A DNA stretch of 64,000 nt. It comes from Cytophagales bacterium. GTDB taxonomy: Bacteria > Bacteroidota > Bacteroidia > Cytophagales > JAAEPT01. The DNA lies in the NCBI GenBank assembly GCA_965230415.1, contig CBDDKZ010000005.1, positions 2,415,060 to 2,479,059 of the forward strand, given 5' to 3'. Below are positions 1,453 through 42,876 of the stretch, one piece after another. A program made the translations under genes and the position numbers. Each line of letters opens with the position of its first letter. The stretch's first letter is position 1. The notes below the pieces were generated by a model that saw only the letters and a program-made list of their open reading frames with translations, did not search any database and was not told where the DNA came from.

Positions 1453-1493
1453 ATAAGATAAAAAGTCAATTTTCGTAATTAGAAAAGGATCGT

Positions 1494-24775: not shown

Positions 24776-24785
24776 ATGACAAAAT

Positions 24786-25304: not shown

Positions 25305-26557
25305 TGGAGCTGGAAAAAGCAAATAGGTATGATCAGGAAGATGCGTTAAGCGACTTGAGGCAAGCGTTTTTTATCCCAAAAGTTGATGAGGAAGAGTTGG
25401 TGTACCTCAGCGGTAATTCCTTAGGGCTCCAGTGTAGAAGTACAAGTGAATTTGTTCAGGCTGAACTCGATGCATGGGCTAAGTACGGAGTAGAAGGGCA
25501 TTTTACTGGGGCAAAACCCTGGGTTAGCTATCATGAACAATTCTCAGTGCCACTGTCGCGCTTGACCGGCGCAAAACCAGTAGAGGTTGTTGCCATGAAT
25601 AGTTTGACAGTGAACCTGCATCTGGCTTTAAGCTCCTTTTACAAACCAAAAGGTAAAAAATCAAAAATCTTGATTGAAAGAAGTGCTTTTGGCTCTGACA
25701 TTTATGCAGTGAAATCACAGATAAAATGGCACGGGCTCAATCCGGAAGAAGAATTACTGTTTTTGGAGGAGGACAGTCAGCAACTGCTAAGTACGGTTCA
25801 CATTTGTGATGTCATTGCACGGTCCAAAGAAGAAATAGCATTAGTACTTTTAGGAGGAGTAAATTACCTAAGTGGGCAGTGTTATGAAATGGAAGAAATT
25901 GCTCGCTGTGCACACGAAAACGACTGTTTTTTTGGAGTAGACCTGGCTCATGCGATTGGTAATGTGCATGTTCCTCTTTCTTTAAATAAATGGGGGGTGG
26001 ATTTTGCTGTTTGGTGTAGTTATAAATACCTGAATTCGGGACCCGGTGGCGTAGGAGGGCTGTATATACACGAAAATCATCATGGGCAAGACCTTACACG
26101 CTTAGAAGGATGGTGGGGGACTCAACCGAAAAATCGTTTCAAAATGGGACCAGACTTTGATCCTATTCCCACTGTCGAAGCCTGGCAACTAAGCAATGCA
26201 CCTGTTTTATCAATGGCTGCTCTTGCGGCTTCTCTGGCCCTATTTGACAGTGTTGACCTCGAAGCTTTGCGCGCCAAGAGTATTCGTTTGACTACGATGC
26301 TCTTTGAAGGATTAAGCAACAATCCGAAAATTAAGATTATAACGCCACAGGATTTTGGACAGCGAGGAGCGCAATTATCTTTATTTATTCCGGGTACCGA
26401 TGAATCTCTGATTCGGGAATTAAGAAACAGAGGTGTAGTGGCCGACTGGCGGAGCTTTAGTAGCGGTGGTATTTTGAGAATGGCCCCTGTGCCTCTTTAT
26501 AATTCCTTTAGCGATGTAAAATATGCTGTGGAGTGTTTAAATGATCTGGTAAAATGA
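25304..26557 (+). CDS. kynU: Kynureninase
   Basis: PLP-dependent fold with a kynureninase-like N-terminus (LRQAFFIP, YLSGNSLG) and SGPGGVGGL. The start ATG overlaps the nbaC stop (TGATG). The listed ORF begins 33 nt earlier. Confidence 0.9.
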   Translation: MELEKANRYDQEDALSDLRQAFFIPKVDEEELVYLSGNSLGLQCRSTSEFVQAELDAWAKYGVEGHFTGAKPWVSYHEQFSVPLSRLTGAKPVEVVAMNSLTVNLHLALSSFYKPKGKKSKILIERSAFGSDIYAVKSQIKWHGLNPEEELLFLEEDSQQLLSTVHICDVIARSKEEIALVLLGGVNYLSGQCYEMEEIARCAHENDCFFGVDLAHAIGNVHVPLSLNKWGVDFAVWCSYKYLNSGPGGVGGLYIHENHHGQDLTRLEGWWGTQPKNRFKMGPDFDPIPTVEAWQLSNAPVLSMAALAASLALFDSVDLEALRAKSIRLTTMLFEGLSNNPKIKIITPQDFGQRGAQLSLFIPGTDESLIRELRNRGVVADWRSFSSGGILRMAPVPLYNSFSDVKYAVECLNDLVK

Positions 26558-27852
26558 AGCATGTTGGGATTATTGGCGCCGGACTCGTAGGAAGTTTATT
26601 GGCGAATTTGTTGAGTAAAAAAGGATTTCGTGTCACCCTTTTCGAGAAACGTTACAATCCACTGAAAACACAGGTTTATGCGGGTCGCTCTATAAATCTG
26701 GCATTGAGTGAACGCGGATTGAAGGCATTACGTTTGCTAGGGCTTGACCAGGAGCTCCTGAAACTGGCCATTCCAATGAAGGCGCGCGTAATTCATAGCC
26801 CTTCCGGTGAAATAAGCCTGCACCCTTATCATCCTGATGCAAAGGCTATCTATTCCATTTCGCGTGGTGAACTCAATTTGTACTTATTAAAAAAGCTCAA
26901 TCAGCAAGTTGCGTTAAAATTTAACCATGACCTTACTACCTGGGACTTTCAATCGGCGACCTTTAGTACTCCGCAGGGTATGTGCAGCTACGAACTCGAT
27001 TACCTGATTGGTTGCGACGGTGGTTTTTCGGCGGTGCGCGATTTTATAGAAAAAGATAATTTTGACCGTCGTCCACTTACACATAGTTATAAAGAGCTTG
27101 CCATTCCTCAGGATGCTTCGGGTAATTTGGTTTTTCCTAATGAAGGTCTGCATATCTGGCCGCGCAAAAGCTTTATGTTTATTGCACTTCCAAATTTAGA
27201 TAATACATTTACAGGAACACTTTTTTTAGCCAAAGAGGGAGCGCCTTCATTTAACTCCTTCAATGAATACGAAAAATTTGATACCTTTTTTAAAAAGGAG
27301 TTCCCTGATGCCTATAAGGTGATACCTGAGTTGGAAATGGAGTATTCCGCAAATCCTGTGTCGAGTTTGTCCACTACCATTACAAAAAAGTGGTCCAAAG
27401 GTAATACGATGGTGATAGGAGATGCGGCTCATGCAATTGTGCCTTTTTATGGCCAGGGGATGAACGCAGGTTTTGAAGATTGTTATATTTTAGATCAGAT
27501 GCTGGATAAATCAAACGGTCAGTTAACGCTTGTATTTGAAGAATTTGCTGCAAAGCGAAAGAAAGATGGCGTAGCTATTGCTGAAATGGCACTTGCGAAT
27601 TTTATTGAAATGCGCGACCTGATAACTGATCCTGCCTTTTTGCTGAAAAGAACTATAGACAATTACCTTTATGCGCATCATCCCGACAAATGGATGTCTC
27701 AATATGCGATGGTAACGTTTGAAGATGTAAGCTACAGCTATGCCTGGCAAAAGGGTAAAGAACAGGATGATTTATTAAATAATATTATAGCAAACTATGG
27801 CGAAGGCTGGCGTAATAACCTACAAGACATACGCACATATTTAGCGCTATGA
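26554..27852 (+). CDS. kmo: Kynurenine 3-monooxygenase (FAD-dependent)
   Basis: FAD-binding GIIGAGLVGSLLANLL is present, with a KMO-like C-terminus. The start overlaps the kynU stop (ATGA). Confidence 0.88.
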   Translation: MKHVGIIGAGLVGSLLANLLSKKGFRVTLFEKRYNPLKTQVYAGRSINLALSERGLKALRLLGLDQELLKLAIPMKARVIHSPSGEISLHPYHPDAKAIYSISRGELNLYLLKKLNQQVALKFNHDLTTWDFQSATFSTPQGMCSYELDYLIGCDGGFSAVRDFIEKDNFDRRPLTHSYKELAIPQDASGNLVFPNEGLHIWPRKSFMFIALPNLDNTFTGTLFLAKEGAPSFNSFNEYEKFDTFFKKEFPDAYKVIPELEMEYSANPVSSLSTTITKKWSKGNTMVIGDAAHAIVPFYGQGMNAGFEDCYILDQMLDKSNGQLTLVFEEFAAKRKKDGVAIAEMALANFIEMRDLITDPAFLLKRTIDNYLYAHHPDKWMSQYAMVTFEDVSYSYAWQKGKEQDDLLNNIIANYGEGWRNNLQDIRTYLAL

Positions 27853-27867
27853 GTGAATTTATTTCAA

Positions 27868-28644
27868 CTATTTTTTCTTTTTGAGCAGGCTTCTTAGTGC
27901 CTCCATTTCCTCTTCCAGTTTGTCAAGCCGCTGCTCCATTAAAGAGGCGGGTTCCAATTGTTTGGTGAAACGCCCTACCACAAGCCAGCATTCTTTAATT
28001 TCGGAATCATCGAATTTGAGCGTCTGAAAGTTATTATTGTCGGCCTGCCACTCAATGCTTTTTCCTTTGATACTGGCGCGACGGCATAATAGCTGCTTCT
28101 CTGTTATAAGGATATAAGACTGGTGGTTCTTAATCTTTTTGTAAGTGGTTTGCTCACCTATCAGGGTGTCGCCCTCCTGAATCCCGGCGTTTCCACTTGT
28201 CATGGCGGGGTCTATTATTTCAAAAGCACGGTGTTGTGGTGCGTGAAATGCTGACATGACAAGCCGAGGCTGTACTGCCATAAAGTCTTTGTTCTGAAAA
28301 TGTGTCAGGTATTCAATGACTTTGGCATTTTTGATATGGGCAATGCCTTCCTTAATCGTCTTTTTCGGTGTACTGGTCAATTGCTTCTTTCCGGCCTGAT
28401 CGATCTCTTTGAAAAGGTCGAAATGGTACAATTCATTGATAGTTAAGTCTTTGGTTAATAGCGTGTCAACCGATATGCCAAAATAATTGGCAATTTGAAT
28501 AATAGTGTCAACTTTGGGCTCGGCTCTTTCTTCTTCATAAGCACCCACACTGGTTCGGGATAGCTTAAATAGCTCTGAAAAAGCAGCTTGAGACAGTTTT
28601 TTAACTGTTCTGATCTTTTTTATATTTTTACCTATCAAAGACAT
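27868..28644 (-). CDS. XRE-family HTH transcriptional regulator fused to an S24 (LexA/CI-like) peptidase domain
   Basis: N-terminal HTH (IKKIRTVKKLSQAAFSELFKLSRTSVGAYEEERAEP) and a C-terminal S24-like beta-domain. It is transcribed divergently from the PspA-flotillin cluster. Confidence 0.75.
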   Translation of the reverse strand: MSLIGKNIKKIRTVKKLSQAAFSELFKLSRTSVGAYEEERAEPKVDTIIQIANYFGISVDTLLTKDLTINELYHFDLFKEIDQAGKKQLTSTPKKTIKEGIAHIKNAKVIEYLTHFQNKDFMAVQPRLVMSAFHAPQHRAFEIIDPAMTSGNAGIQEGDTLIGEQTTYKKIKNHQSYILITEKQLLCRRASIKGKSIEWQADNNNFQTLKFDDSEIKECWLVVGRFTKQLEPASLMEQRLDKLEEEMEALRSLLKKKK

Positions 28645-28866
28645 TTTTCGGAAATAATTGCCAATAATTTTGGAGTTTCTAATATTTTTGGTATAATTGT
28701 TGTATGGTATTTAAGTAAAGACAGCAATTATGAAGTATCAAACATACAATAGTCAACCTCCATAGCCAAAATAATTGGCGATAAGTATATGAAAAGTATT
28801 CGATTTAATTAAATTTACTACGAATCTTTTAAGGAGTTTTTCGACTACAATAAACAACAAAATAAA

Positions 28867-29259
28867 ATGAACGAACAATTCATCAAAGTTAGAGACTACG
28901 TCCTGGAACTGGGATATAACATTGCATCAGAGAGTGAAGAAGACGGTATCATCATCGTAGAAAACGAAGAAGCCGGTATTATTAATTTAGTATTATTGGT
29001 AGCAGATCCAATCCTACTTTTTGAGCAGTATTTGTTTGATGTACCGGCAGAATCAGCCAGCATATACAAAAGCCTTTTACAAAAGAACAGAGATATCATT
29101 CACGGAGCTTTCGTGTTGGATGAAACGGGCAATAGAGTGATTTTCAGAGATGCATTGCAACTTGAAAATTTAGACCTCAACGAAGTAGAAGGGTCATTCA
29201 ACTCACTTAAATTATTGCTTGGTGAGTATAGTGAAGAATTAATTGAGTTTTCAAAATAA
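28867..29259 (+). CDS. YbjN-like (putative sensory-transduction/chaperone-like) domain protein
   Basis: 130-aa acidic cytoplasmic protein whose pattern resembles the YbjN family. It is the first gene of the + strand cluster. Confidence 0.45.
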   Translation: MNEQFIKVRDYVLELGYNIASESEEDGIIIVENEEAGIINLVLLVADPILLFEQYLFDVPAESASIYKSLLQKNRDIIHGAFVLDETGNRVIFRDALQLENLDLNEVEGSFNSLKLLLGEYSEELIEFSK

Positions 29260-29270
29260 AAGTATTAAAC

Positions 29271-29996
29271 ATGAGTATTTTCAAAAGATTATTTAAAATA
29301 GGACAATCGGAGGCACATTCTGCTATCGATAAATTAGAAGATCCAATCAAATTAACCGAACAAGGTATCAGAGATCTTAAAAAAGACCTTGACAAAGCCT
29401 TACACGCTTTGGCAGAAGTGAAAGCGTTGGCAATACGTTCAAGAAACGAAGGTGAGACTGAATCGGCCAAGGCAAAAGATTACGAGAAAAAGGCCATGCT
29501 TTTATTGCAAAAAGCAGAAAAAGGGGAGATTGCTCCCGAAGATGCCGATCGTTTAGCCAGTGAAGCACTTGTTAAAAAGAGCGAAGCAGAGCAACAGGCT
29601 GCACGTGCAAAAGCCGATCAGGATAAATTTGACAAAAACGTCGCTCAGCTTGATGTAAACGTGAAGAGTTTGAGAACAAATATTTCCAAATACGAAAACG
29701 AATTACGTACGCTTAAGGCACGAGTGAAAGTAAGCGATGCCACTAAGAAAATCAATAAACAAATGGCTCAAATAGATGCTACCAGTACCGTTTCCATGTT
29801 GGAGCGTATGAAAGAAAAAGTAGCTCAGGAAGAAGCCTTAGCTGAATCTTATGGAGACATTGCCAATGAGAGCAAAAGTGTGGACGATGAGATCGATAAG
29901 GCCCTAAATACCGGAACAGCACAAACAGCTGCTTCAGACGACCTTGCGGCTCTTAAAGCCAAAATGGGTATTAACAAAAGCGACTCTGCTGAGTAA
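29271..29996 (+). CDS. pspA: PspA/IM30 (phage-shock protein A / Vipp1 / ESCRT-III-like) family protein
   Basis: 241 aa. The N-terminal amphipathic helix MSIFKRLFKIGQSEAHSAIDKLEDPIKLTEQGIRDLKKDL aligns with PspA [28 protein letters not shown]..., and a long coiled coil follows. Confidence 0.85.
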   Translation: MSIFKRLFKIGQSEAHSAIDKLEDPIKLTEQGIRDLKKDLDKALHALAEVKALAIRSRNEGETESAKAKDYEKKAMLLLQKAEKGEIAPEDADRLASEALVKKSEAEQQAARAKADQDKFDKNVAQLDVNVKSLRTNISKYENELRTLKARVKVSDATKKINKQMAQIDATSTVSMLERMKEKVAQEEALAESYGDIANESKSVDDEIDKALNTGTAQTAASDDLAALKAKMGINKSDSAE

Positions 29997-30095
29997 GCTC
30001 GTTCTAAATGGTCTTTGAGCCTTTGGATTAAGCATAAATTCGCCGGTAGCAATTTTGCTACCGGTACCTAACCTAAACAACTATTATTACCATCA

Positions 30096-30788
30096 ATGAT
30101 TATATTATCTGTAAGCCAAGTTATTCAAGAATCCTTCTCTGCTGTAAATATTGTACCTACTACCATGCTCTGCCTGGCAGTGGTCTACTGGTTTACAGTA
30201 ATTTTAGGTGCACTGGATATGGGCTTTCTCGATTTTGATCTTGATGTGGATTATGAAGCTGACGTCGATATCCAGGTAGATGTAGATGCCGAAGTCAGTG
30301 CTGATGTAGATGGTGGTGCAGAGCCATCTATGTTTATTAAATTACTATCTTTCTTTAACCTGGGGAAAGTCCCTTTCATGGTGGTCTTCACAGCCGTTGC
30401 TATTCCTATGTGGTTTATAGCTACAACAACAAATAGCTGGTTAGGTATTCATCATCTAGGAATTGCATTACTGCTTACCATTCCTTATTTGTTTGTCAGT
30501 CTACTGCTTAGCAAAGTAGTAACACAGCCACTGGCAAAACTCTTTCACAAAATGGAAAAAGATGAAGTACATGATACAGATCTTATAGGTAAAATTTGCC
30601 GCGTAAAATATGGTATAAACGATGAACGAACCAGTCAGGCAGAAGTAGATTATGATGGACGTTCTTACCTTATTAATGCCAAGGCTACCAGTAATAAATC
30701 ACTAGCCAGGGGCGAAACAGGTCTACTCATCGATTACATCAAAGAAGATGATTATTACCTGGTAGAACCCTATGCTAACCCTACTTAA
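30096..30788 (+). CDS. NfeD-like / YqiJ-like inner-membrane protein (TM helices, acidic DxD repeat loop, C-terminal OB-fold)
   Basis: 230 aa with three or four TM segments, the loop DFDLDVDYEADVDIQVDVDAEVSADVDG, and a C-terminal NfeD-type beta domain (GKICRVKY...GETGLLIDY). It is immediately upstream of a flotillin, as in yqiJK. Confidence 0.6.
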   Translation: MIILSVSQVIQESFSAVNIVPTTMLCLAVVYWFTVILGALDMGFLDFDLDVDYEADVDIQVDVDAEVSADVDGGAEPSMFIKLLSFFNLGKVPFMVVFTAVAIPMWFIATTTNSWLGIHHLGIALLLTIPYLFVSLLLSKVVTQPLAKLFHKMEKDEVHDTDLIGKICRVKYGINDERTSQAEVDYDGRSYLINAKATSNKSLARGETGLLIDYIKEDDYYLVEPYANPT

Positions 30789-30863
30789 AAAACTGAACTA
30801 CTCTGAACACAAGCTAATTACTATTATTAATCTATTGTTTAATTCTAACAACCACAATTACAT

Positions 30864-33122
30864 ATGATAACAAAAACTATGATATTAGTTGGCATTATTG
30901 TCTTTGTGTCAATTGGCCTAGCGGCCATGATACTCAAAATGTACAAGAAGGCCATTCAAGGTTTTGCATTAGTGCGAACTGGTTTCGGAAACACCAAGGT
31001 ATCCTTTAGCGGGCTATTTGTAGTACCAATTATCCATAAAATGGAAACAATGGATACCACCGTTAAAACCATTATGATTGAACGTTCCGGGAAGGACGGC
31101 CTTGTTTGTAAAGACAACATGCGCGCCGATATTAAAGTGACCTTTTTCGTGCGCGTAAATCCTACTACCGAAGCAGTGGCCAAAGTGGCTCAATCCCTTG
31201 GTTGTTCTCGTGCGTCCGATCAACGCGCCCTGGAAGATCTCTTCGATGCGAAATTTTCGGAGGCCCTTAAAACAGTCGGTAAGCATTTCGATTTCGTAGA
31301 GCTATACAACTCACGTGCCGCATTCAACGACCGGATTGTAGAAGAAATAGGTAAAGACCTCAATGGTTATGTGCTCGACGATTGTGCGATTGACTACCTG
31401 GAGCAAACACCGCTCAACAACCTGGATGAAAAGAATATCCTCGATGCGGTAGGTATCAAGAAAATTATTGAGCTTACCTCAGACGAAAAAATTAAGTCCA
31501 ACCTCATTGAGAAAGAAAAGGAAAAAGTAATCACAAAACAGAATGTGGAGGCTCGCGAAACGGTGCTTGAACTCGAAAAGCAACTTGCCGAAAAAGAGGC
31601 CAAGCAGAGGCGTGAGATCGAAACCATTCGTTATACAGAGAATGCCGAGATTGACCGGGTGAGAGAAGAGGAGCGTGAAAAAGCGGAGCGTGCACGCATA
31701 CAGGTGGAAGAAGAGCTTGAAGTGGCCGAACAGAATAAATTGCGACAGGTAATTGTTGCCAAAAAGAACAAGGAAAGAACCGATGCCATAGAAACGGAAC
31801 GTGTGTTGAAAGACAAGGAGCTTGAAGCTACCGAACGTCAACGGGTGGTAGAGCTTGCTCAGATTGAAAAAGAAAAGGCACTTGAAGAGGAGCGTAAAAA
31901 CATTCAGGATGTGATTCGCGAACGTGTGTCTGTAGAAAAGGCAGTGGTAGAAGAAGAAGAGAAAATCAAGGATACGAAGGCGATAGCTGAGGCAGATCGT
32001 GAGAAGACGGTCGCAATTACCAATGCCGAAATGGAGGCCGAAGAAGCTTTGGTAAAAGAGATCAAAGCTGCCGAGGCACGCAAACAAGCTGCCGAACACA
32101 ATGCACAACAAATGAACATCGTTGCCGAAGCGGAGCAACAAGCTTCCGTAAAACGTGCCGAGGCTAAAAAGATTATGGCCGAAGCAGCCGCAGCTGAGGT
32201 GGCTTCTCGTGGTATGGGTGAAGCACAGGTGATTGAAGCGAAGGCCGAGGCGATGCAGAAACAAGGTGAATCTGAGGCTCAGGTCATTGAAATGAAAGCA
32301 AGGGCAGAGGCCAAAGGCTATGAAGAGCAGGGTTTGAGTGAGGCTAAAGTGATACAAGAAAAAGCGGTTGCCATAGAAACACGCGGTAAATCGGAAGCAG
32401 CAGTTATCGCTGAGAAGCACGCCGCAGAAGCCAAAGGTATTGAACTTAAGGCTGTGTCGGAAGCTAAAGGCTTAGAAGAACAAGGGTTAAGCGAAGCCCG
32501 TGTCATTCAGGAAAAAGCATCGGCGGAAGAAGCTCGTGGTATGGCCGAAGCGAAAGTTACTCAGGAGAAACTCGCTGCAGAAGCCAAAGGTATCGAAGAG
32601 AAAGCGGAAGCGATGCAGAAACTCGATGGCGTTGGTCGTGAGCACGAAGAGTTTAAGCTACGCCTTGAAAAAGATAAGGAAATCGAGCTGGCGAAAATTA
32701 GTATACATGAGGTGGTTGCCCAAGCACAGGCGCAGGTAATTGCCGAAGGATTGAAAGCTGCCAAAATAGATATCGTAGGTGGTGAAACCATGTTCTTCGA
32801 TCAAATTGTAGGTTCTATCGCAAATGGTAAGAAAATTGATCGAATGGTCGATAACAGCCATGTACTGGAACAGGTAAAAGACACTTTCTTCGGTGGCGAC
32901 GGCAACAACGGCGATTTTAAAGAAAACCTGCGCAACTTTGTCGATCAGTTTGGTATTAGCATGCAAGATATTAAAGATCTCAGCGTAGCAAACCTACTGA
33001 ACAAAATGGCAGGTCAGACAACTGACAAGTCGATGCTCGCCAAAATTGGGCAGCTGCTCGGTGTTGCAAACCTGACAGGAGTAGCCGATAAAGGTATCGA
33101 CTCATTAGGTATCTTCAAATAA
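30864..33122 (+). CDS. Flotillin-like SPFH/band-7 protein (YqiK/FloA-like) with an extended Ala/Glu-rich coiled-coil repeat region
   Basis: 752 aa. An N-terminal TM helix and SPFH domain (ALVRTGFGNTKVSFSGLFVVPIIHKMETMDTTVKTI) are followed by about 400 aa of E/A/K-rich heptad repeats, then a conserved flotillin C-terminus. Confidence 0.85.
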   Translation: MITKTMILVGIIVFVSIGLAAMILKMYKKAIQGFALVRTGFGNTKVSFSGLFVVPIIHKMETMDTTVKTIMIERSGKDGLVCKDNMRADIKVTFFVRVNPTTEAVAKVAQSLGCSRASDQRALEDLFDAKFSEALKTVGKHFDFVELYNSRAAFNDRIVEEIGKDLNGYVLDDCAIDYLEQTPLNNLDEKNILDAVGIKKIIELTSDEKIKSNLIEKEKEKVITKQNVEARETVLELEKQLAEKEAKQRREIETIRYTENAEIDRVREEEREKAERARIQVEEELEVAEQNKLRQVIVAKKNKERTDAIETERVLKDKELEATERQRVVELAQIEKEKALEEERKNIQDVIRERVSVEKAVVEEEEKIKDTKAIAEADREKTVAITNAEMEAEEALVKEIKAAEARKQAAEHNAQQMNIVAEAEQQASVKRAEAKKIMAEAAAAEVASRGMGEAQVIEAKAEAMQKQGESEAQVIEMKARAEAKGYEEQGLSEAKVIQEKAVAIETRGKSEAAVIAEKHAAEAKGIELKAVSEAKGLEEQGLSEARVIQEKASAEEARGMAEAKVTQEKLAAEAKGIEEKAEAMQKLDGVGREHEEFKLRLEKDKEIELAKISIHEVVAQAQAQVIAEGLKAAKIDIVGGETMFFDQIVGSIANGKKIDRMVDNSHVLEQVKDTFFGGDGNNGDFKENLRNFVDQFGISMQDIKDLSVANLLNKMAGQTTDKSMLAKIGQLLGVANLTGVADKGIDSLGIFK
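32205..32625 (+). repeat. In-frame degenerate tandem repeats (about 20 codons each) encoding the E-A-K-V-I-Q-E-K-A coiled-coil units of the flotillin
   Basis: Repeated peptide units (...SEAQVIEMKARAEAKGYEEQGLSEAKVIQEKAVA..., ...GLEEQGLSEARVIQEKASAEEARG...). The matching nucleotide-level repeats explain the long antisense ORF at 31479..32420. Confidence 0.5.
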
Positions 33123-33161
33123 ACACGTATTTAACTAAAATTAAACTTAATCTGTGAATCC

Positions 33162-33192
33162 ATTTTGTTGACTTAATCATGGTCAACAAAAT
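33162..33192. promoter_or_regulatory. Perfect 11-bp inverted repeat (ATTTTGTTGAC-N9-GTCAACAAAAT) between the flotillin gene and the next gene
   Basis: Seen directly in the sequence. No U-tract follows it, so it could be an operator, an RNA processing or stability hairpin, or a weak intrinsic attenuator. Confidence 0.3.
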
Positions 33193-33292
33193 AGGATTAA
33201 CGGAAGCATAAAATTCATCAATTGCTGTAAACTTACGCTGATACCATATGCTCCTCAAAACGAGGATGACTAAAACTTAACGCAGTAAAAAG

Positions 33293-33853
33293 ATGAAAAA
33301 CTTAAAAGAATTTCCCAATACACCAAAAGACGTAACCGTGGAAGCAAAGAAAAATGGTTATGTATTTACCATTGATGAACGAAAACCCTTGTGGGCGCTG
33401 ATGCATTTTGCCTTATTTCTGTTTGCAATTGCTATAGTGGTCAACTGGGTACTGTCCGATGAATCTTTCCCTACCAGTCAGTTAATACTGATGAGCATTG
33501 CCTCTCTTTTTGGCTTATATGCCGGGTTTAGATTTGTGCACTTTTTTACCAAACGAACTATTGTGATTTTAAATGCAAATGAAATGATAAGTTATATCCG
33601 GTCGGTACTGAAATTTCAAAAAAGAAAAGTGGATTTAAGTGCTATAAAAGGAGTGCATATTACTCGGAAAACAGGGCAGGGAAGCGTAAGTGAAGTTGGG
33701 GCCGAGAGAAATTATATACGAGAAATCCTGGAAGTAGATTTAGGGACTCGTCGTTTTGCATTAGCGAAAGATGCGTCGTCTCATGCGCGTTATTTTCTCA
33801 AAGCCAGCCTCAATAATTACAGATATCGAAACAATCAACAACTAGCGGCTTAA
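33293..33853 (+). CDS. Small membrane protein (two TM helices plus a cytoplasmic domain, possibly bacterial PH-like)
   Basis: 186 aa. It has a hydrophobic hairpin (LWALMHFALFLFAIAIVVNWVL ... LILMSIASLFGLYAGF) and a basic cytoplasmic tail. Its stop lies 7 nt before the giant ORF. Confidence 0.5.
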   Translation: MKNLKEFPNTPKDVTVEAKKNGYVFTIDERKPLWALMHFALFLFAIAIVVNWVLSDESFPTSQLILMSIASLFGLYAGFRFVHFFTKRTIVILNANEMISYIRSVLKFQKRKVDLSAIKGVHITRKTGQGSVSEVGAERNYIREILEVDLGTRRFALAKDASSHARYFLKASLNNYRYRNNQQLAA

Positions 33854-33859
33854 TTAACT

Positions 33860-36800
33860 ATGCAGGAACACCAAGATAAAGAAATAAAACTGGAAGGAGA
33901 TACCTATGAGGTGCTTCGCGGACGATTACTCAAACATATTGACGATTTACAAAAACGTCTTGGTAATTTAAATAAAGCGAGAAAAGAAGTCTTTGGTTCT
34001 ATAGAGACCAGCCTCTTATCTACAGAGCGCATTACCACCGGAAATAACTGTGTTTCCAGGGACATGATACCCATAGGGAATTCTTTTATTCTTGGTTATA
34101 ATGTGCATATTGGACTACGCATGGAAACTAATATTGCCGATGTTTTCAGCATTTATAAATATGAAAACCATCAGTTTCATGCGCAGGATCTTACACTCGT
34201 TAATGACGCCCGGTTTGAAGAAGACTTCAAAAATCTTTATAAATACTACAAACAAACAGAGTTTGTGAAGTTTGCACGTGTCGGTACGTTTTTATACATG
34301 GTGTTTCGTATTGGTAAGAGTGTGAACGATATTAAGGTTTTTAAATGGGCGATTAATGAGGACAAGCTCGTTTATGTAGATGCGCGAAGTGAACACGAAT
34401 TCAAGTATCCGGAACAGCATCAATTTGAATGGAAACGTGTAACCCGGGACATGCAGCGCGACGGGGCTAATGCACATTTTAGTATTGAAGATTTGGTCTT
34501 TGTCGAAACAATTGGTGGCGACCTTACTATTAAAGTCGAAGATAACACTGACACGGGACAGGGTATTTATAGCGAGCCTGTTGAACAAGCCGATCAAACA
34601 CTCGATGATGCTGAAATACATTATGCCATTCTGGGTAACATTATCCTGCTAAAAGTTAAGCCCTATCAGGAACGTGATTTCAGGTATATCGTATTTAACT
34701 CAAAAATTCAGGAAGCAAGGCGCATAGACGCCATAGAAAATGCCTGCGTTCTACTACCAGATGATCACGGGCTCATATTTCCCGACGGCTATTACCTGCA
34801 AACGGGAGAATTCAAATTATTCGATCACGACCTGAAAGACCTTCTTTATGAACGTCGTCTCCTGTCTCCGAATGGAGAAGACTACTTGTATGTATTTTTC
34901 AACAGAGCAGAAGGAATCTACTTGTTACTGTCTTATAACTTAATAGAGCAAACAGTCGATACTCCTGTGATCTGTTCGGGTTATTCCATTTTTGAAAATG
35001 GAGAGATGTGCTATTTCAAATCGGATGGAGAACCTAAAAAGCACCATATAGTGCAAATTTGGCAAACCCCTTACGTAGGGCCTGATTATGAAATTCAGTC
35101 TGTAAAAGATGACTTTTTATATAAAATAGGAAATAAAGACATCGTGAGAGCTATGGCGGGATGTCATGAAATAATGTACCTCATGCACAAAGGGGAAGGT
35201 TATGCCGGGCTGTATTTGGAGATCATGAAAAAGTCGAGCGACTTGTTAGATACCTACTATTGGTTGGATAAAGAAGAAACCTATGAATTGCAGATACCTA
35301 TTCTGGCTATCAAAGAAACAGCATCACTGGCAATCGATGAGTATGAGAAAGTCCGGAATATTAAAAGTAGTACGCGTCAGCAACTAAATTTAGTTAAGCA
35401 AAAGAAAGAAGACCTTACCAAGCAGATAGGTAGGCAGAAACCGAAGTCGGTCAATGAATTTGTGAAGTACCTGGCCGACTTACGTATACTTCGTGGAGAG
35501 ACAATTTCGCTTAAAGAGTTGCGCTACATAAACCTGGAAAGTGTTGAGTCGCTGGAAGCGGAAATTGAAGCTATCAACGATGAGATGGCGCGCGACTGTG
35601 TTAAGTACCTCGTCAAAAAAGAATCGTTAAACCCTTATGAGCAAAGAGTTCGTGACATCGAAGCATCGATTGATGGCCTTAAGAAAGTAGTTGATGCCAA
35701 CAAAGTAGAGGAGCAGATCGACCAGACTTCATTAGAGCTGGAAATGCTTATCGAAATAGTGAGTAATTTGAAGATAGAAGATGCCACGCAAACAACCCAA
35801 ATAATAGATCATATATCGGCCATTTATTCGAGCTTTAACCAAATCAAAGTGGCGCTTAAACGAAAGCGCAAAGATTTATTGGCAGTAGAAGGAACAGCGG
35901 AGTTTAATGCACAAATTAAACTAATAAGTCAGGGGCTTATTAACTACCTCGACATGGTTACTACTCCAGAGAAATGTGACGAGTTTTTGGCGAAGCTGAT
36001 GGTACAGCTGGAGGAATTGGAAGGTAAATTTGCCGAGTTTGATGACTTTATCGAAAAAATTTCTTTGAAACGTGAAGAGATTTATAGCGCTTTTGAAAGT
36101 AAAAAAGTAGCACTGTTGGAGGCGCGAAACAAAAGGGCTAATACCTTACAGGCCTCTGCCGATCGTATTATAAAAGCCAGCCAGGGACGGGCGTCCAAAT
36201 TCGATTCTGTAAATGAAATCAATGGTTACTTCGCTGCCGATATCATGATCGAAAAGGCACGAAATATAATTGATGAGCTTATAGAAATGGGTGATACGGT
36301 TAAAGCTGATGACATCCAAAGTAGGCTCAAGACTGTAAAAGAAGAAGCAATAAGGCAACTAAAAGACAAAAGTGAGCTCTTTGTCGACGGCGAAAACACC
36401 ATTAAACTGGGTAATTATTCCTTTTTGGTGAACACACAGGCGCTGCAATTAACAATCGTCAATAAAGACGATGACCTGTATTTCCATTTAACCGGCACCA
36501 ACTTTTTCGAACTCATTCGCGATCAGAAAATGAATGACTATCAGCGTTTTTGGGATAGGCCACTGGTGTCTGAAAGCAAAGAAGTTTACAGAGCAGAATA
36601 TTTGGCCTATAAGTTTTGGCATTATATTAATAATGCGGAGTCCGATACGCGCCAAAAAGGGGAAGAGATCGCTTTGATGTCTCTTGAGCATATACAGGAG
36701 CAGGTTTCAGAATTTATGGCTCAGCGCTTTGATGAAGGTTATGTCAAAGGTGTTCACGATTACGATGCATCGCTTATCTTCAGCAAGCTCAATGCGATGG

Positions 36801-39385
36801 TTCACGGAACCGATCTGTTACGTTTTAGCTCTTCAGCAAGAGCAATGGCGGCTTATTTTTGGCAGGTATGGCTGGATGAAGACTTGCAAGCAGACCTTGA
36901 AAAGCGTTTAAAAGGTGCAGGTATGATTCTTAAAGTTTTTCCAAAAACCAAAGAGTTTCATGGTCTCAAGCTGGAACTGGTGCAAGCTATAAGCAATTTT
37001 CAGAAAGAGTCAGGCCTGTTTAGTGATGAATTAGTAGAAGAAGCAGGAGCCTATTTATTTATTGAAAAATCGAGGGGAGACCACTTTATTATCGATGGGG
37101 AGGCAGAAGTATTGTATAAAGGATTTCTTGAATTCCTCAAAAAATCTAAATCCCACAGTGGTTTTCGAACTTCCGTCGATGGTTTAAACAAGTCGGCTGC
37201 CTTTAAATTGATTTTGAGCTGGTTACATGCTTATGAAGAGCAACAGGAGCAAACGTTTAAACCTTACCTGGAAGAAGCGGCATTATTGATTCTAAATGAA
37301 AATTATGTGGCCAATCATGTGCTGCGCACTAGTCTTAAATCAAAAATAAGTGATTTGAGGGGGGCTCACAGCAGTATAAAAGAACAACAGTTCAATTTTG
37401 ATCTCAATGAATTTATGCTCCGTTTGCACCATTTTGACTCTTATGAAGTTCCTGCTTATAGAGATTATACCATTTATAAAAAGAAGCTTGCGGAGCAGTT
37501 TAGCGATGAGTTACGATTGGGAGAGTTTAAACCACAAGTCATGAATTCATTCGTCCGTAACGAGTTGATAAATAAGGTTTATTTGTCATTGATAGGTGCA
37601 AATTTGGCCAAACAAATTGGTGCCGCTGGAGAGGGGAAAAGAACCGATTTAATGGGGATGTTATTACTGGTTTCACCTCCAGGTTATGGTAAGACCACTT
37701 TGATGGAATATGTGGCCAATCGATTGGGGCTTATTTTTATGAAAATAAATGGTCCGGCTATAGGTCACGAAGTTACATCAGTAGATCCTGCTCAAGCTAC
37801 AAATGCCAGTTCGAGGGAGGAACTTGAAAAATTGAATCTTGCCTTTGAAATGGGTGACAATGTGATGATCTATGTGGATGATATTCAGCATACGAATCCG
37901 GAGTTTCTGCAAAAGTTTATTTCCCTTTGTGATGCACAACGCAAGATTGAAGGTGTTTACAAGGGACGAAGTAAAACCTACGACTTCAAAGGAAAAAAGG
38001 TGTGTGTGGTAATGGCGGGTAATCCGTATACAGAAAGTGGTGCCCGTTTTCAAATTCCTGATATGCTGGCCAACCGTGCCGATATTTACAATCTTGGTGA
38101 TATCATCGGTGATCAGGCCGATGTATTTAAGCTAAGTTATATTCAAAACTGCGCTACCTCAAATGCCGTTTTGAGCCAACTTGCGGGAAAAAGCCAAAAA
38201 GATGTGCTTACCTTAATAAAAGTGGCCGAAACCGGCAATCGAGATGAACTTTCATTTGAAGCGAACCATGCTGTAGAGGAAATTAATGAGTATGTGTCTG
38301 TTCTTGGCAAGATATTAAAAGTGCGTGATGTCGTGCTTAAAGTAAACGAGCAGTATATTCTCTCAGCAGGACAGGCTGAAGAATATCGAACCGAACCTGC
38401 TTTTAAGCTACAGGGGTCATACCGTAATATGAATAAAATTGCAGAAAAGATTGTGCCGGTAATGAACGATGCAGAGCTGGACGTACTTATTGATTCACAT
38501 TACGAAAATGAAGCACAAACCCTTACTAAAGGTGCTGAGGCCAATTTGTTGAAATTCAAGGAAATGATAGGTGCGCTCTCCGATGAGGATGCTGAGCGTT
38601 GGGAACAAATCAGGCAAACATTTCAAAGAAATAATAAATTGAAAGGGCTCGGTGGTAATGAGATGGGGCATGTACTTGCTCAAATGGAGTCTATAACAGA
38701 AGGGCTTTTTGGGATTAAACAAGCCTTGTCACCAACTGTTGGCGATAATGTGCCTGCTAAGGTAAATACGCTGCCTGCCAAAGAGCAGGTAGCGCCGCAA
38801 GCTGCTGTTACGAATAGTGGAAATGATTGGAAACAATATGGAGACAGACTCGATGAAGTGCTGAGAGCTTTGGCAGACAATCAGTCTAAAATCATCACAG
38901 AACTGAGGTTGCAGCAAAAAACAGATCGCGCATTGCTCGATGCCGAAAATGAGCGTGAACGCCTGGCAAAAGAAGAACAAAAACGCCAACAAGAACTAGT
39001 GGCCAAAGCAAAAAAGAAGAAAGAAGAGGAAGTACGCCAAATGCGTGAGCAGGTGGAGGTAGCAGTGATGGAGAAAGGTTTTTTGGAAGAAGATGGCAAT
39101 GCTTATATCACATTTAAGTTTGCTTTTCAGAGCAAAGTTGAAGAAGTTATAACAGCCTTTACCGGCATGCTTGAGTTCAAGGATCAGTTCGAGAGTCCAA
39201 TACACTCCATTAATATATCATATGAGGATGGTATCCAGCCCAACGAATTGATTACATGGCCTGCTCAAATATTCTATAATCAATTTTTGGAGAAAGACAT
39301 TGCACTAAGAGAACTAAATCTGGAACAGCTGAGAGTGACCTGGGTTCCGCAGAAAGTGATGCTCGGAAAACAAGCTAGTAAGTAA
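33860..39385 (+). CDS. Giant (1841 aa) cytoplasmic protein with an embedded MoxR/AAA_5-like P-loop ATPase module and a C-terminal coiled coil
   Basis: One uninterrupted ORF with no TM helix or signal peptide. Walker A LLLVSPPGYGKTTL is near aa 1276 (nt about 37684). Walker B MIYVDDIQH is near aa 1340. A sensor-1-like CVVMAGNPYTESG and an Arg-containing segment FQIPDMLANRADIY (compare MoxR ATQNP..LPEAQLDRF) follow. A basic/acidic coiled coil KRQQELVAKAKKKKEEEVRQMREQ lies near the C-terminus. Confidence 0.8.
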   Translation: MQEHQDKEIKLEGDTYEVLRGRLLKHIDDLQKRLGNLNKARKEVFGSIETSLLSTERITTGNNCVSRDMIPIGNSFILGYNVHIGLRMETNIADVFSIYKYENHQFHAQDLTLVNDARFEEDFKNLYKYYKQTEFVKFARVGTFLYMVFRIGKSVNDIKVFKWAINEDKLVYVDARSEHEFKYPEQHQFEWKRVTRDMQRDGANAHFSIEDLVFVETIGGDLTIKVEDNTDTGQGIYSEPVEQADQTLDDAEIHYAILGNIILLKVKPYQERDFRYIVFNSKIQEARRIDAIENACVLLPDDHGLIFPDGYYLQTGEFKLFDHDLKDLLYERRLLSPNGEDYLYVFFNRAEGIYLLLSYNLIEQTVDTPVICSGYSIFENGEMCYFKSDGEPKKHHIVQIWQTPYVGPDYEIQSVKDDFLYKIGNKDIVRAMAGCHEIMYLMHKGEGYAGLYLEIMKKSSDLLDTYYWLDKEETYELQIPILAIKETASLAIDEYEKVRNIKSSTRQQLNLVKQKKEDLTKQIGRQKPKSVNEFVKYLADLRILRGETISLKELRYINLESVESLEAEIEAINDEMARDCVKYLVKKESLNPYEQRVRDIEASIDGLKKVVDANKVEEQIDQTSLELEMLIEIVSNLKIEDATQTTQIIDHISAIYSSFNQIKVALKRKRKDLLAVEGTAEFNAQIKLISQGLINYLDMVTTPEKCDEFLAKLMVQLEELEGKFAEFDDFIEKISLKREEIYSAFESKKVALLEARNKRANTLQASADRIIKASQGRASKFDSVNEINGYFAADIMIEKARNIIDELIEMGDTVKADDIQSRLKTVKEEAIRQLKDKSELFVDGENTIKLGNYSFLVNTQALQLTIVNKDDDLYFHLTGTNFFELIRDQKMNDYQRFWDRPLVSESKEVYRAEYLAYKFWHYINNAESDTRQKGEEIALMSLEHIQEQVSEFMAQRFDEGYVKGVHDYDASLIFSKLNAMVHGTDLLRFSSSARAMAAYFWQVWLDEDLQADLEKRLKGAGMILKVFPKTKEFHGLKLELVQAISNFQKESGLFSDELVEEAGAYLFIEKSRGDHFIIDGEAEVLYKGFLEFLKKSKSHSGFRTSVDGLNKSAAFKLILSWLHAYEEQQEQTFKPYLEEAALLILNENYVANHVLRTSLKSKISDLRGAHSSIKEQQFNFDLNEFMLRLHHFDSYEVPAYRDYTIYKKKLAEQFSDELRLGEFKPQVMNSFVRNELINKVYLSLIGANLAKQIGAAGEGKRTDLMGMLLLVSPPGYGKTTLMEYVANRLGLIFMKINGPAIGHEVTSVDPAQATNASSREELEKLNLAFEMGDNVMIYVDDIQHTNPEFLQKFISLCDAQRKIEGVYKGRSKTYDFKGKKVCVVMAGNPYTESGARFQIPDMLANRADIYNLGDIIGDQADVFKLSYIQNCATSNAVLSQLAGKSQKDVLTLIKVAETGNRDELSFEANHAVEEINEYVSVLGKILKVRDVVLKVNEQYILSAGQAEEYRTEPAFKLQGSYRNMNKIAEKIVPVMNDAELDVLIDSHYENEAQTLTKGAEANLLKFKEMIGALSDEDAERWEQIRQTFQRNNKLKGLGGNEMGHVLAQMESITEGLFGIKQALSPTVGDNVPAKVNTLPAKEQVAPQAAVTNSGNDWKQYGDRLDEVLRALADNQSKIITELRLQQKTDRALLDAENERERLAKEEQKRQQELVAKAKKKKEEEVRQMREQVEVAVMEKGFLEEDGNAYITFKFAFQSKVEEVITAFTGMLEFKDQFESPIHSINISYEDGIQPNELITWPAQIFYNQFLEKDIALRELNLEQLRVTWVPQKVMLGKQASK

Positions 39386-39482
39386 AAGGTAGGAATTAAG
39401 TGATAATTTGTGCGGTATAATGCATTATTGAGCTTGTTTTGAAATTAATTTGTAGTTTTGCAGACCAAATAAAAATAGTCGT

Positions 39483-40361
39483 ATGTTAAAATCCATGACG
39501 GGATACGGCGTTTCCCGCTTCGAAAACGATCTCTTAAGAGTTGTCGTAGAAATTAAAACACTAAATTCTAAATTTTTAGACGCTAATGTTCGTCTTCCCA
39601 AGGCCTTTAACAGTCGTGAAGTAGAAATTAGAAACGAGCTGACCAATAAACTTGAGCGGGGAAAGATAAGCCTGACCCTCGAATATGAGTATTTGGGTGA
39701 AAAGCCACCCAAGGCCGTTGTTAATAAAGAACTGATAAAGAAATACTACATTCAGCTCAAAGAAGCAGCAGAGTTTGTTGGTGTCAATGAACCCGATCTT
39801 TTTAAAATAGCCCTTGGCATGCCTATGGCTGTCGAAAACCTCAGCGATGATGGTGATTATGACGAGGAATGGAATATCATTAAAGAGGTGGTTGCAACAG
39901 CTATTTCAAAATGTGATAATTTCAGAACTCAGGAAGGAGCTAAGTTACAAGAGAAGCTGACTTCATATATCCAGGAAATTGACAAATTGCTCGAAGAGGT
40001 TAAGAAAAGAGATCCGGAACGTTTGAAAATGGTAAAAGAACGTATTAAAGCGCATGTCAGTGAAAACATCGCCGAGGATGTTATCGATCAAAATAGGTTG
40101 GAACAAGAGCTTATCTATTATGTGGAAAAACTCGATATTGCTGAGGAGACGGTGCGACTGAAAAGCCATCTGGATTACTACATTGAAATCCTTAAATCGT
40201 CAAATAGCAGTGGTAAAAAATTAGGTTTCGTTAGTCAAGAGATTGGTCGGGAGATAAATACAATTGGTTCAAAAGCAAACGATGCCGTATTGCAACAATT
40301 GGTCGTGAAAATGAAGGAGGAAAACGAGAAGCTAAAAGAACAGATTCTAAATATTATTTAA
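39483..40361 (+). CDS. yicC: YicC-family stress-induced protein
   Basis: 292 aa. The YicC N-domain (MLKSMTGYGVSRFENDLLRVVVEIKTLNSKFLD) and the C-terminal DUF1732 region (SQEIGREINTIGSKAND) are both present. Confidence 0.85.
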   Translation: MLKSMTGYGVSRFENDLLRVVVEIKTLNSKFLDANVRLPKAFNSREVEIRNELTNKLERGKISLTLEYEYLGEKPPKAVVNKELIKKYYIQLKEAAEFVGVNEPDLFKIALGMPMAVENLSDDGDYDEEWNIIKEVVATAISKCDNFRTQEGAKLQEKLTSYIQEIDKLLEEVKKRDPERLKMVKERIKAHVSENIAEDVIDQNRLEQELIYYVEKLDIAEETVRLKSHLDYYIEILKSSNSSGKKLGFVSQEIGREINTIGSKANDAVLQQLVVKMKEENEKLKEQILNII

Positions 40362-40929: not shown

Positions 40930-42876
40930 ATGAAAAAGCTATTATTGGCTATAGGATTTACTATATGCCTTAATTTAACTTCAGCTTATGCCACTACCCC
41001 GCATAGTGAGCAAAAATTTAAAGCTTCTTGTGACGAGACCGGCCCTAATGGCGAGTATACAATTGCCCTGCAGGAAAATGCCAGCGAACTTGTTATAGAC
41101 TGGGATGCCCTTATAAGTAATGCCGGAAATGGCTTTACCTATCTGGATTACTGGGTGAACGGTTCTTATAAGGGATCATACCCCGCATCGATAAATTATG
41201 ATGAGCGTATATTCGGTATAAACAACATTAGTGATGGCGATGTTATAGAATTCTTTTTTAAATATGATCGTCCTGGAGGTCAGTACATTGGCTCCAGAAA
41301 TGATCACAGACACGTATTCGGAAGTTGCACAGCAGATCAGGACGCTGATGGAGATGGCTTTACTGCCGACGAAGACTGTGATGATAATGATGCTTCTGTT
41401 AATCCTGATGCCGTTGAAATTTGCGATGGTATTGATAATAACTGCGACGGTCAAATAGACGAAGGTTTGCTTTCGGAGTTTTTTGTGGACGAAGACGGCG
41501 ATGGATATGGTGATACCGACCAACCTGTAATGGCTTGCGAATTAGGCGACGGTTTAGCATCGGTAGGTGGAGATTGCCAGGATCGTGACAGTAAAGTGAA
41601 TCCGGGAGCAGAGGAACGTTGCGATGGCTTTGATAACAACTGTGATGGTCAGATTGACGAATCGGGAGATCCTAAAACATGGTATGCCGATAATGATTTT
41701 GATGGATACGGAGATCCTGACAATTCAGAGTTTACCTGTAGACCTCCATCTCAATTCCATATTACATTTGGAGGTGATTGCGATGATAACAATAATTCAA
41801 TTAATCCGGGAGCATCGGAAGTTTGTGATGAACTGGATAATGATTGTAATGACCAAATTGATGATGGTTTGCCAACACAAACGTTTTATGCAGATGAAGA
41901 CGGAGACGGCTTTGGTAAATCTGATGATGTAGGGGCGGTGCAGTCTTGTCTGCCGGAATTAGACGGTCATGTTTTAAACGATGATGATTGTAATGATGCT
42001 TCTGCCGCTATAAACCCTGATGCAGAAGAAGTTTGTGATGAGCTGGATAACAATTGCGATGGTCAAATAGATGAAGGTGTACAAACACAGTTTTGGATAG
42101 ATGAAGACCGTGATGGTTGGGGTGGCTCTGACCAATGGGTATGGGCTTGTGAAAATCCGTCTACCACTGGTTCATTGGTAGATCGAACTGGTGATTGCAA
42201 TGATGACAATGAATTTATTAATCCGGATATGGATGAAATTCTTGGAAATGGAATTGATGATAATTGTAATGGTGAAGTTGACGAAGGTAGCGATTGTGTA
42301 GTGGAGAACCCAAATGGCGAATACACACTCACTTTTTCAGAACTTGGCAATTTGTTAATTATTGACTGGGATGCACTTATTCCAAATGCCGGTAATGGCT
42401 TTACCTATCTTGATTATTGGGTAAATGGTACTTATCAGGGATCTTATCCGGCTACTGTTAACTATGCTGACCGCGTTTTTGGTATTAATAATTTAAATAT
42501 GGGAGATGTAGTAGAGTTTTTCTTTAAGTATGATCGTCCTGGAGGTCAATATATCGGAGTACAGGGTGATCATACATATACTATGGGGAGTTGTGTTCCG
42601 AACGTTGCGAAAAATAGGTGGGAAGAAGGTTTTGTAGAGGACTTGACTAATACCAGACTTTGGCCTAACCCTGTAACTGAAGTATTATATGTTGAAACTG
42701 ATTCGAAATTGATTAGTAACATATCAATAATCAGCAATACAGGAGTAGAGAGTATAATGGAAACTATCAACTCAGTAGCTGCTTCAGTTGATGTGAGTGC
42801 ACTTCCGGAAGGAGTTTATACAGTAAAAGTTGAAACAAATTTCGGAGTTCACATGGCGAAATTTGTCAAGCAGTAA
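40930..42876 (+). CDS. T9SS-secreted cargo protein with five Cys/Asp-rich 'putative metal-binding motif' repeats between two copies of a duplicated ~95-aa domain, and a C-terminal Por sorting domain
   Basis: Signal peptide present. The domain NGEYT...IDWDALI.NAGNGFTYLDYWVNG.Y.GSYPA..NY..R.FGINN...GDV.EFFFKYDRPGGQYIG occurs at aa about 40-130 and again at about 460-550. Between them are five repeats of D.DGDG.G..D....C....D.CDDN...VNP.A.E.CDG.DNNCDGQIDEG. The C-terminus LWPNPVTEVLYVE...YTVKVETNFGVHMAKFV resembles the T9SS CTD. Confidence 0.75.
   Translation: MKKLLLAIGFTICLNLTSAYATTPHSEQKFKASCDETGPNGEYTIALQENASELVIDWDALISNAGNGFTYLDYWVNGSYKGSYPASINYDERIFGINNISDGDVIEFFFKYDRPGGQYIGSRNDHRHVFGSCTADQDADGDGFTADEDCDDNDASVNPDAVEICDGIDNNCDGQIDEGLLSEFFVDEDGDGYGDTDQPVMACELGDGLASVGGDCQDRDSKVNPGAEERCDGFDNNCDGQIDESGDPKTWYADNDFDGYGDPDNSEFTCRPPSQFHITFGGDCDDNNNSINPGASEVCDELDNDCNDQIDDGLPTQTFYADEDGDGFGKSDDVGAVQSCLPELDGHVLNDDDCNDASAAINPDAEEVCDELDNNCDGQIDEGVQTQFWIDEDRDGWGGSDQWVWACENPSTTGSLVDRTGDCNDDNEFINPDMDEILGNGIDDNCNGEVDEGSDCVVENPNGEYTLTFSELGNLLIIDWDALIPNAGNGFTYLDYWVNGTYQGSYPATVNYADRVFGINNLNMGDVVEFFFKYDRPGGQYIGVQGDHTYTMGSCVPNVAKNRWEEGFVEDLTNTRLWPNPVTEVLYVETDSKLISNISIISNTGVESIMETINSVAASVDVSALPEGVYTVKVETNFGVHMAKFVKQ

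Follow-up and report, generated by a model that had tools for sequence, protein, structure and literature searches.

A conserved gene cluster linking a giant MoxR-class AAA+ protein to flotillin-family, YqiJ-like and PspA proteins in the chromosome of a Cytophagales bacterium

A 64000 nt stretch of a Cytophagales bacterium genome (GenBank assembly GCA_965230415.1; contig CBDDKZ010000005.1, coordinates 2415060 to 2479059), referred to here as the window, was analysed at a locus where the gene for a very large soluble ATPase of 1841 amino acids (aa) lies downstream of genes for several membrane-associated proteins. Six genes, encoding a divergently transcribed regulator, a CesT/Tir-like protein, a PspA protein, a YqiJ-like membrane protein, a flotillin-family protein and the giant ATPase, were found to form a conserved unit (window coordinates 27868 to 39385; all coordinates below are those of the window unless another sequence is named), and their clustering is not a chance juxtaposition. 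The core of the unit is found across many phyla and consists of a YqiJ/NfeD-like protein, a long flotillin-type SPFH protein with one transmembrane (TM) segment and a protein of ~1650–1850 aa with propeller, helical and MoxR-class parts, while the CesT-like protein, PspA and the divergent helix-turn-helix (HTH) regulator are additions found in Bacteroidota. We lean, if only slightly, towards reading the locus as a chromosomal membrane-maintenance or envelope-stress operon, in which the giant would be an ATP-driven remodeller of flotillin/PspA assemblies at the inner membrane.

Conservation was assessed in 80 genomic loci encoding relatives of the giant, drawn from Bacteroidota, Planctomycetota, Verrucomicrobiota, Desulfobacterota, Omnitrophota, Kiritimatiellota and two Clostridia (at least 6 phyla). 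The window proteins, and profiles made from the first-round matches, served as queries against the six-frame open reading frames (ORFs) of these loci. Counts of flotillin and YqiJ-like genes were limited to the 60 loci in which 3.2 kb or more of sequence precedes the giant gene, and those of PspA, CesT-like and regulator genes to the 58 in which 6.5 kb or more does. A flotillin gene was found directly upstream of the giant gene in 56/60 assessable loci and a YqiJ-like gene in 54/60, and wherever these genes occur the order YqiJ, flotillin, giant is always fixed and on a single strand. PspA was encoded in 25/58 assessable loci, and the CesT-like gene and the divergent regulator were each present in 23/58. 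Every one of the 23 CesT-like genes is directly upstream of PspA, and the divergent regulator accompanies the CesT-PspA pair in 23/23 loci. The exact arrangement seen in the window, with the regulator divergent from CesT, PspA, YqiJ, flotillin and giant in that order, was thus found in 23 loci, all from Bacteroidota, and the two closest relatives of the window giant share this full arrangement. As the giant tracks flotillin (56/60) far better than it tracks PspA (25/58), flotillin is more likely than PspA to be its primary partner, judged from these gene neighbourhoods. An earlier note on this stretch had read eight genes as the parts of one membrane-associated system, and had proposed, as a test for chance juxtaposition, asking whether the giant is syntenic with SPFH, NfeD and PspA genes in other genomes. 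That test was strongly positive and a single conserved membrane-associated locus is borne out by synteny, with the regulator, CesT-like, PspA, YqiJ, flotillin and giant genes retained and the two other genes set aside.

One of the genes set aside encodes YicC (292 aa; coordinates 39483–40361, + strand; identified with both the Pfam and the NCBIfam YicC models), which was rejected as a component on its absence from 80 of the 80 loci. The other encodes a 186 aa protein with two hydrophobic segments (33293–33853, + strand; no Pfam match), called here the 2-TM protein, which was likewise missing from every one of the 80 loci and was rejected as a lineage-specific orphan. Because both genes are missing from all 80 loci, the conserved unit ends at 39385 and not at 40361. 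No conserved partner was found downstream of the giant gene by all-against-all clustering, with local synteny in this direction confined to close relatives.

The 2-TM gene stands between the flotillin and giant genes, and this gap (33123–33859 in the window) behaves as an insertion slot. Of 68 loci, 41 have a gap shorter than 250 bp and the other 27 have one of 270–2360 bp with unrelated small ORFs; in one of the nearest relatives (L081) the slot holds a GIY-YIG gene (coordinates 9546–9851 of that locus). In a word-indexed search of 5.8 billion clustered proteins the 2-TM protein matched itself alone, and a full HMMER scan of 1.84 billion cluster representatives returned itself and one weak partial match (1.1e-5), in which aa 112–175 align at 30% identity to a unit repeated six times in a 1514 aa protein (P0242). 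Exact database copies exist of the 2-TM protein (P0121) and of the flotillin (P0122; 100% identical, 747 aa, with a start 5 codons later), and the homologue list of the giant includes no 100% match. In a 37 kb ENA metagenome contig (L083) the 2-TM gene is present with the beginning of the giant gene, after which the genes are unlike those of the window.

The eight ORFs reported in the earlier note were all recovered, with coordinates and strands confirmed. The regulator gene is on the - strand and the remaining seven are on the + strand, where the intergenic gaps from the CesT-like gene to YicC are, in order, 11, 99, 75, 170, 6 and 97 bp. A scan for promoters and terminators yielded no excess of sites over shuffled sequence; its promoter models are of the sigma-70 type, which does not fit Bacteroidota.

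The giant gene (33860–39385, + strand) encodes a protein with matches to DUF3686 (5.5e-190), DUF7902 and AAA/AAA_5. Of the candidates scored, 5627 belong to its family at E ≤ 1e-10, and the closest shows only 57% identity to it. No TM segment was detected in a hydropathy scan, in agreement with the earlier description of the protein as soluble. AlphaFold2 models were made of aa 1–1150 (mean predicted local distance difference test score, pLDDT, 82.2) and of aa 1151–1841 (77.6). They predict an N-terminal helix (aa 13–45), a beta-rich domain corresponding to DUF3686 (aa 51–402) for which beta-propellers were the sole PDB structure matches, a long helical and coiled-coil region that includes DUF7902 (aa 419–837), a small beta unit (aa 847–885) and a further helical domain (aa 911–1146). 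An AAA+ module with its lid follows from about aa 1265 to 1420, and structure matches place its fold nearest the MoxR class, with NorQ and CbbQ as the closest structural relatives. The C-terminus (about aa 1600–1841; 38660–39382) is a clade-specific extension of 240 aa common only to the five closest relatives (P0001–P0005), and is modelled as a low-confidence linker (aa 1624–1658), a long helix of ~70 residues (aa 1658–1729) and a beta domain (aa 1732–1836; pLDDT ~95). In the whole-model structure searches, the AAA+ module dominated the match lists over this beta domain.

The nucleotide site is strongly conserved, with the Walker A sequence SPPGYGKTT, the Walker B sequence hDDIQH and the motif MAGNP invariant in 79/79 giants and PDML[AST]NRA present in 74/79. 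The stretch MAGNP...PDMLANRA is one that we take to resemble the NP...LxDRF signature of MoxR proteins. The giant shares with the MoxR family (NorQ, CbbQ, RavA) its best structural matches and the Pfam AAA_5 assignment, but it is 6–7 times larger, carries propeller and helical domains and has Asp-Asp in Walker B.

The flotillin gene (30864–33122, + strand) encodes a 752 aa protein in which one TM segment (aa 6–24) precedes a putative, divergent SPFH domain and a long coiled coil rich in Glu, Ala and Lys; the C-terminal region is conserved. The protein itself had no family match in Pfam, NCBIfam, PADLOC or the PDB (phmmer), and it is assigned to the flotillin-family SPFH proteins through its homologues. 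Band_7 was matched in 2 of 31 homologues that are 51–64% identical to it (best 2.5e-12), the homologues are named 'flotillin family protein' by NCBI or 'YqiK' by JGI, and a profile of the family reaches the SPFH protein QmcA weakly (2.1e-3). Immediately upstream, the YqiJ/YuaF (NfeD-like) gene (30096–30788, + strand) encodes a 230 aa membrane protein with a YqiJ_N match (1.4e-3) that falls below the Pfam cut-off. Three hydrophobic segments were indicated by a hydropathy scan, and the protein has in addition an acidic loop and, at its C-terminus, a soluble domain. Among 28 homologues, YqiJ_N was matched in 13 and the NfeD C-terminal domain in 3.

The PspA/IM30 protein of the ESCRT-III superfamily (241 aa; 29271–29996, + strand; PspA_IM30 2.5e-43) also gave matches to the NCBIfam models PspA (6.2e-14) and LiaH (1.1e-10), both under the respective cut-offs. 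Its gene forms a dyad with the gene 11 bp upstream (28867–29259, + strand), which encodes a 130 aa CesT/Tir-like chaperone-fold protein of the YbjN clan. This protein, called 'YbjN-like' in the earlier note, gave a marginal match to YbjN (1.5e-4) and a far stronger one to CesT_Tir_1 (1.1e-51).

The regulator gene (27868–28644, - strand) encodes a 258 aa protein with matches to HTH_19 (2.3e-11) and Peptidase_S24 (4.7e-6), the latter exceeding the Pfam cut-off. The protein is made up of an XRE-type HTH (aa 5–65), a degenerate S24/LexA-like C-terminal domain and a short C-terminal helical tail, and in an alignment of 24 orthologues the HTH was found to be strongly conserved, the C-terminal domain much less so and the tail conserved. 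The linker varies across the orthologues, and the single 'AG' in the window protein (aa 84–85) is not common to the others. The family profile matched the LexA C-terminal domain weakly (0.012–0.05), and comparison of the regulator profile with Escherichia coli LexA using hhalign gave a probability of 81% (E = 1.2e-5). In this alignment, Ser119 of LexA is opposite Thr149 of the window regulator, in a column that holds T/Q/E/S/D/F/V/L across the family, and Lys156 is opposite Cys188, in a column that is hydrophobic. The catalytic Ser-Lys pair is not conserved in the regulator family, and SOS-style self-cleavage is unlikely because this pair has been lost; the SOS-like control suggested in the earlier note is thus not upheld.

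The control region between the regulator and CesT-like genes (28645–28866; 222 bp) contains a 17 nt inverted repeat with arms ATTGCCAATAATTTTGG (28657–28673) and CCAAAATAATTGGCGAT (28766–28782), which are 88% complementary and separated by 92 nt, and this is a candidate operator pair. The motif TT[ATG]GC[ATC]A[AT] was counted 65 times across the 24 orthologous control regions, where shuffled sequence yields 5.3 ± 2.8, a ~twelve-fold excess for a pattern that was picked post hoc from the same data and may overlap Bacteroidota promoter elements. It recurs at set distances near the start codon of the regulator gene and is likewise a candidate operator only.

The earlier note had considered the system to be undescribed. 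However, the operon had already been catalogued, regulator included, by Ravi et al. 2024 (mSystems, PMC11237479), who reported a CesT/Tir-PspA operon with a band-7/flotillin protein, a YqiJ/YuaF 3-TM protein and a beta-propeller-coiled-coil-AAA+ ATPase. The neighbourhood from Dokdonia donghaensis (ANH61663.1) in Table S3 of that paper includes a divergent '<-cHTH+Protease' gene, and shortened operons without PspA were described as more widespread. The window locus agrees with this operon in gene content, order, strand and the divergent 'cHTH+Protease' regulator, and has each of its features, namely CesT followed by PspA, a 3-TM YqiJ protein, a TM plus band-7 protein (recognised via homologues), a propeller-AAA+ ATPase and the regulator. 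It is therefore another member of an operon known in silico and not a new system. The window differs in the additional orphan 2-TM gene and the C-terminal extension of the giant, in the lack of the PadR/PspC/Toastrack genes found upstream in Dokdonia, and in a regulator domain, labelled 'Protease' in that paper, from which the catalytic pair is absent. The functional reading offered here is the same as that reached by the comparative genomics of Ravi et al. 2024 (PMC11237479), the two having been proposed independently. The role they favour is that of a chaperone-like factor for the assembly of membrane-linked complexes, and they draw the Vps4/ESCRT-III parallel for PspA-linked ATPases in general. 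In a second survey, Popp et al. 2022 (PMC9239133) found band-7 proteins encoded beside pspA in Bacteroidota and other phyla, noted that pspA tends to adjoin genes for HTH regulators, and identified NfeD as a neighbourhood partner in Acidobacteriota.

Genes linked to polyamines were found near the locus in relatives. In the two nearest relatives, genes for S-adenosylmethionine decarboxylase, DUF4178 and spermine synthase lie behind the regulator, with DUF350 also present in L081, and polyamine-linked genes, including one for an amine oxidase, are located beside the operon in L081 (coordinates 1268–4059 and 21992–25444), L082 (1–4531) and L084 (1–4110). The Pseudomonas fluorescens plasmid pQBR103 carries on one strand genes for PspA, DUF2491, DUF350, DUF1190, glutathionylspermidine synthase, a 217 aa hypothetical protein, an SPFH protein and a giant; the gene for the 217 aa protein corresponds to YqiJ by position only. 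The polyamine-linked genes of the relatives and of pQBR103 correspond to other PspA-linked modules of Ravi et al., and the link of the giant to PspA and to polyamine modules thus recurs in varied forms. In the window, the place of these genes in the relatives is occupied by a kynurenine-pathway trio just upstream of the regulator (24786–27852), encoding 3-hydroxyanthranilate dioxygenase, kynureninase and a flavin adenine dinucleotide (FAD) monooxygenase.

The window is otherwise ordinary chromosome, with nusA-infB, asd, scpB, carB, YicC, PIN-PhoH and rlmN genes around the operon, and no mobile-element or defence genes were found among the window ORFs scanned. A DPP-IV-type peptidase is encoded at 22547–24775, before the kynurenine-pathway trio. 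Five copper-binding motifs of the MopE type are found in a 648 aa protein (40930–42876), together with a CBM_56 stretch and a C-terminal sorting domain of the type IX secretion system; this sorting domain, like the nearest relatives, points to Bacteroidota. A 445 aa fusion of a PIN domain and a PhoH-like ATPase is encoded at 53230–54567.

Parts of the arrangement have counterparts in better-known systems. NfeD proteins are partners of SPFH proteins, and in both E. coli YqiJ-YqiK and Bacillus subtilis YuaF-FloT, as in the window, an NfeD/YqiJ-type gene is directly upstream of that for a flotillin-type SPFH protein. We know of no giant ATPase, CesT-like gene or PspA linked to either pair, and the window flotillin differs from theirs in being ~200 aa longer and too divergent for Pfam Band_7. 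The B. subtilis pspA-ydjGHI (samGHI) operon, which is a membrane-stress operon, resembles the locus in combining genes for PspA and an SPFH protein, but it also encodes YdjG and YdjH, the latter with a TPM domain, it has no AAA+ ATPase and its SPFH protein is cytosolic. SPFH membrane cages pair with AAA+ machines in HflK/C-FtsH and in the prohibitins with m-AAA proteases. These provide the working analogy of an SPFH scaffold with an AAA+ machine at the membrane, though the giant has neither a protease domain nor a TM segment and is of the MoxR class, not the classical clade. PspA is a member of the ESCRT-III superfamily, and its co-occurrence with an AAA+ ATPase recalls Vps4 with ESCRT-III (Snf7/CdvB), although the giant does not combine an AAA module of the classical clade with an MIT domain at its N-terminus.

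On the membrane-maintenance reading, the flotillin and YqiJ proteins would oligomerise into a scaffold at the inner membrane, facing the cytoplasm, and the giant would dock on this scaffold, probably via its propeller or helical region. Acting as an AAA+ ring, the giant would use ATP to assemble, remodel or dismantle flotillin/PspA polymers or the clients they hold, and the CesT-like protein may keep PspA in a controlled state. The regulator is predicted to repress both promoters through AT-rich TTnGCnAA sites. With the catalytic pair missing from its S24-like domain, derepression would depend on some signal other than self-cleavage stimulated by RecA. A more ambitious form of this scheme, which is speculative and on balance rather unlikely, would cast the giant as a motor dedicated to a bacterial flotillin cage, akin to FtsH within HflK/C but without proteolysis, and, where PspA is co-encoded, perhaps also as the missing Vps4-like factor for disassembly of bacterial ESCRT-III polymers. 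The dead S24 domain and helical tail of the regulator would then sense free PspA or CesT, through a partner switch resembling that of PspA and PspF, and not DNA damage.

Several observations weigh against membrane maintenance by ATP-driven remodelling. Spacing and synteny are the grounds for treating the genes from CesT-like to giant as one putative operon. The giant is encoded without a nearby flotillin in 4/60 loci (in one of the four the giant gene is broken), and PspA, missing from over half of the loci, is not a universal substrate. Walker B has Asp-Asp in place of Asp-Glu in 79/79 giants (aa 1340–1341; 37877–37882), such that hydrolysis may be slow or regulated. The VWA partner typical of MoxR ATPases was not found by Pfam among the eight locus proteins, and no further conserved neighbour could supply it. 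Finally, a literature search for DUF3686, PF12458 or experiments on any member found nothing beyond the two in silico surveys.

Among the other explanations considered, one that is unlikely but deserves to be taken seriously is that the giant is a MoxR-type maturation chaperone that uses the flotillin platform for cofactor insertion into, or assembly of, another membrane complex and leaves the scaffolds themselves unremodelled. Its closest structural relatives, NorQ and CbbQ, mature or activate other enzymes, and a chaperone-like assembly role is the one favoured by Ravi et al. 2024 (PMC11237479), but no client enzyme or VWA adaptor is conserved beside the YqiJ, flotillin and giant triad, and the scaffold proteins are the sole universally linked genes. 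The name 'DNA repair ATPase', which NCBI usually gives to relatives of the giant, implies instead a repair enzyme with incidental membrane neighbours. This is very improbable and the name appears to be without support. It is passed on from the Pfam text for DUF3686 ('ATPase involved in DNA repair'), and although weak RuvB_N/RuvB matches were obtained and RuvB is among the structural matches, the likeness spans ~50 residues around the P-loop, is below the cut-offs and is exceeded by that to MoxR-class proteins. No nucleic-acid-binding domain was found in the giant, no paper on DUF3686 or PF12458 was found in the literature search, and the giant is tied to flotillin and YqiJ in >90% of loci.

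The earlier note had also raised an abortive-infection or defence role, in which DNA damage or infection would activate an anti-phage module by way of the S24 regulator, and this was found to be improbable. PspA was originally discovered through its induction by phage, the operon contains a variable insertion slot, and the HTH part of the regulator gave weak PADLOC matches (HTH, RmrA, capH), similar XRE-type regulators being present in defence loci. However, beyond this generic HTH no meaningful match was obtained with PADLOC 2.0. The best matches of the giant (mad8, 8.3e-4; TRIP13, 7e-3) cover the P-loop region, those of PspA are weak matches to long coiled-coil models (JetC, 9.5e-5 and 3.1e-4; LmuB, 7.6e-3), and the CesT-like, YqiJ-like, flotillin and 2-TM proteins had none. 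The giant was encoded in 0/50697 phage records and in 13/72556 plasmid records, among them that of pQBR103 and several that are chromosome-sized, and the flanks are housekeeping genes free of mobile-element genes among the ORFs scanned. The gene order is fixed across phyla and the regulator lacks the residues for self-cleavage. A chance juxtaposition of independent genes is scarcely credible, as synteny, order and strand are identical across at least 6 phyla, and it is already refuted for the six conserved genes; it does describe YicC and the 2-TM gene, which are indeed unrelated neighbours.

The association of giant, flotillin and PspA is itself not new, having been flagged by Ravi et al. 2024 (PMC11237479). 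What is added here are the counts that make flotillin and YqiJ, and not PspA, the constant partners of the giant, together with the loss of the catalytic residues from the regulator, the candidate operator motif, and the finding that YicC and the 2-TM gene are not part of the unit. Bacterial flotillins and PspA are both much studied, and the operon bears on what flotillin scaffolds do and on how PspA polymers come apart without Vps4. The operon hard-wires flotillin and PspA to a very large ATPase with an invariant nucleotide site, and organisms carrying the giant include the genetically tractable Flavobacterium, Hymenobacter, Pontibacter, P. fluorescens (pQBR103) and Proteus. As it links an ATPase to both proteins, is found in many phyla and occurs in tractable hosts, the operon is a good experimental entry point to these questions.

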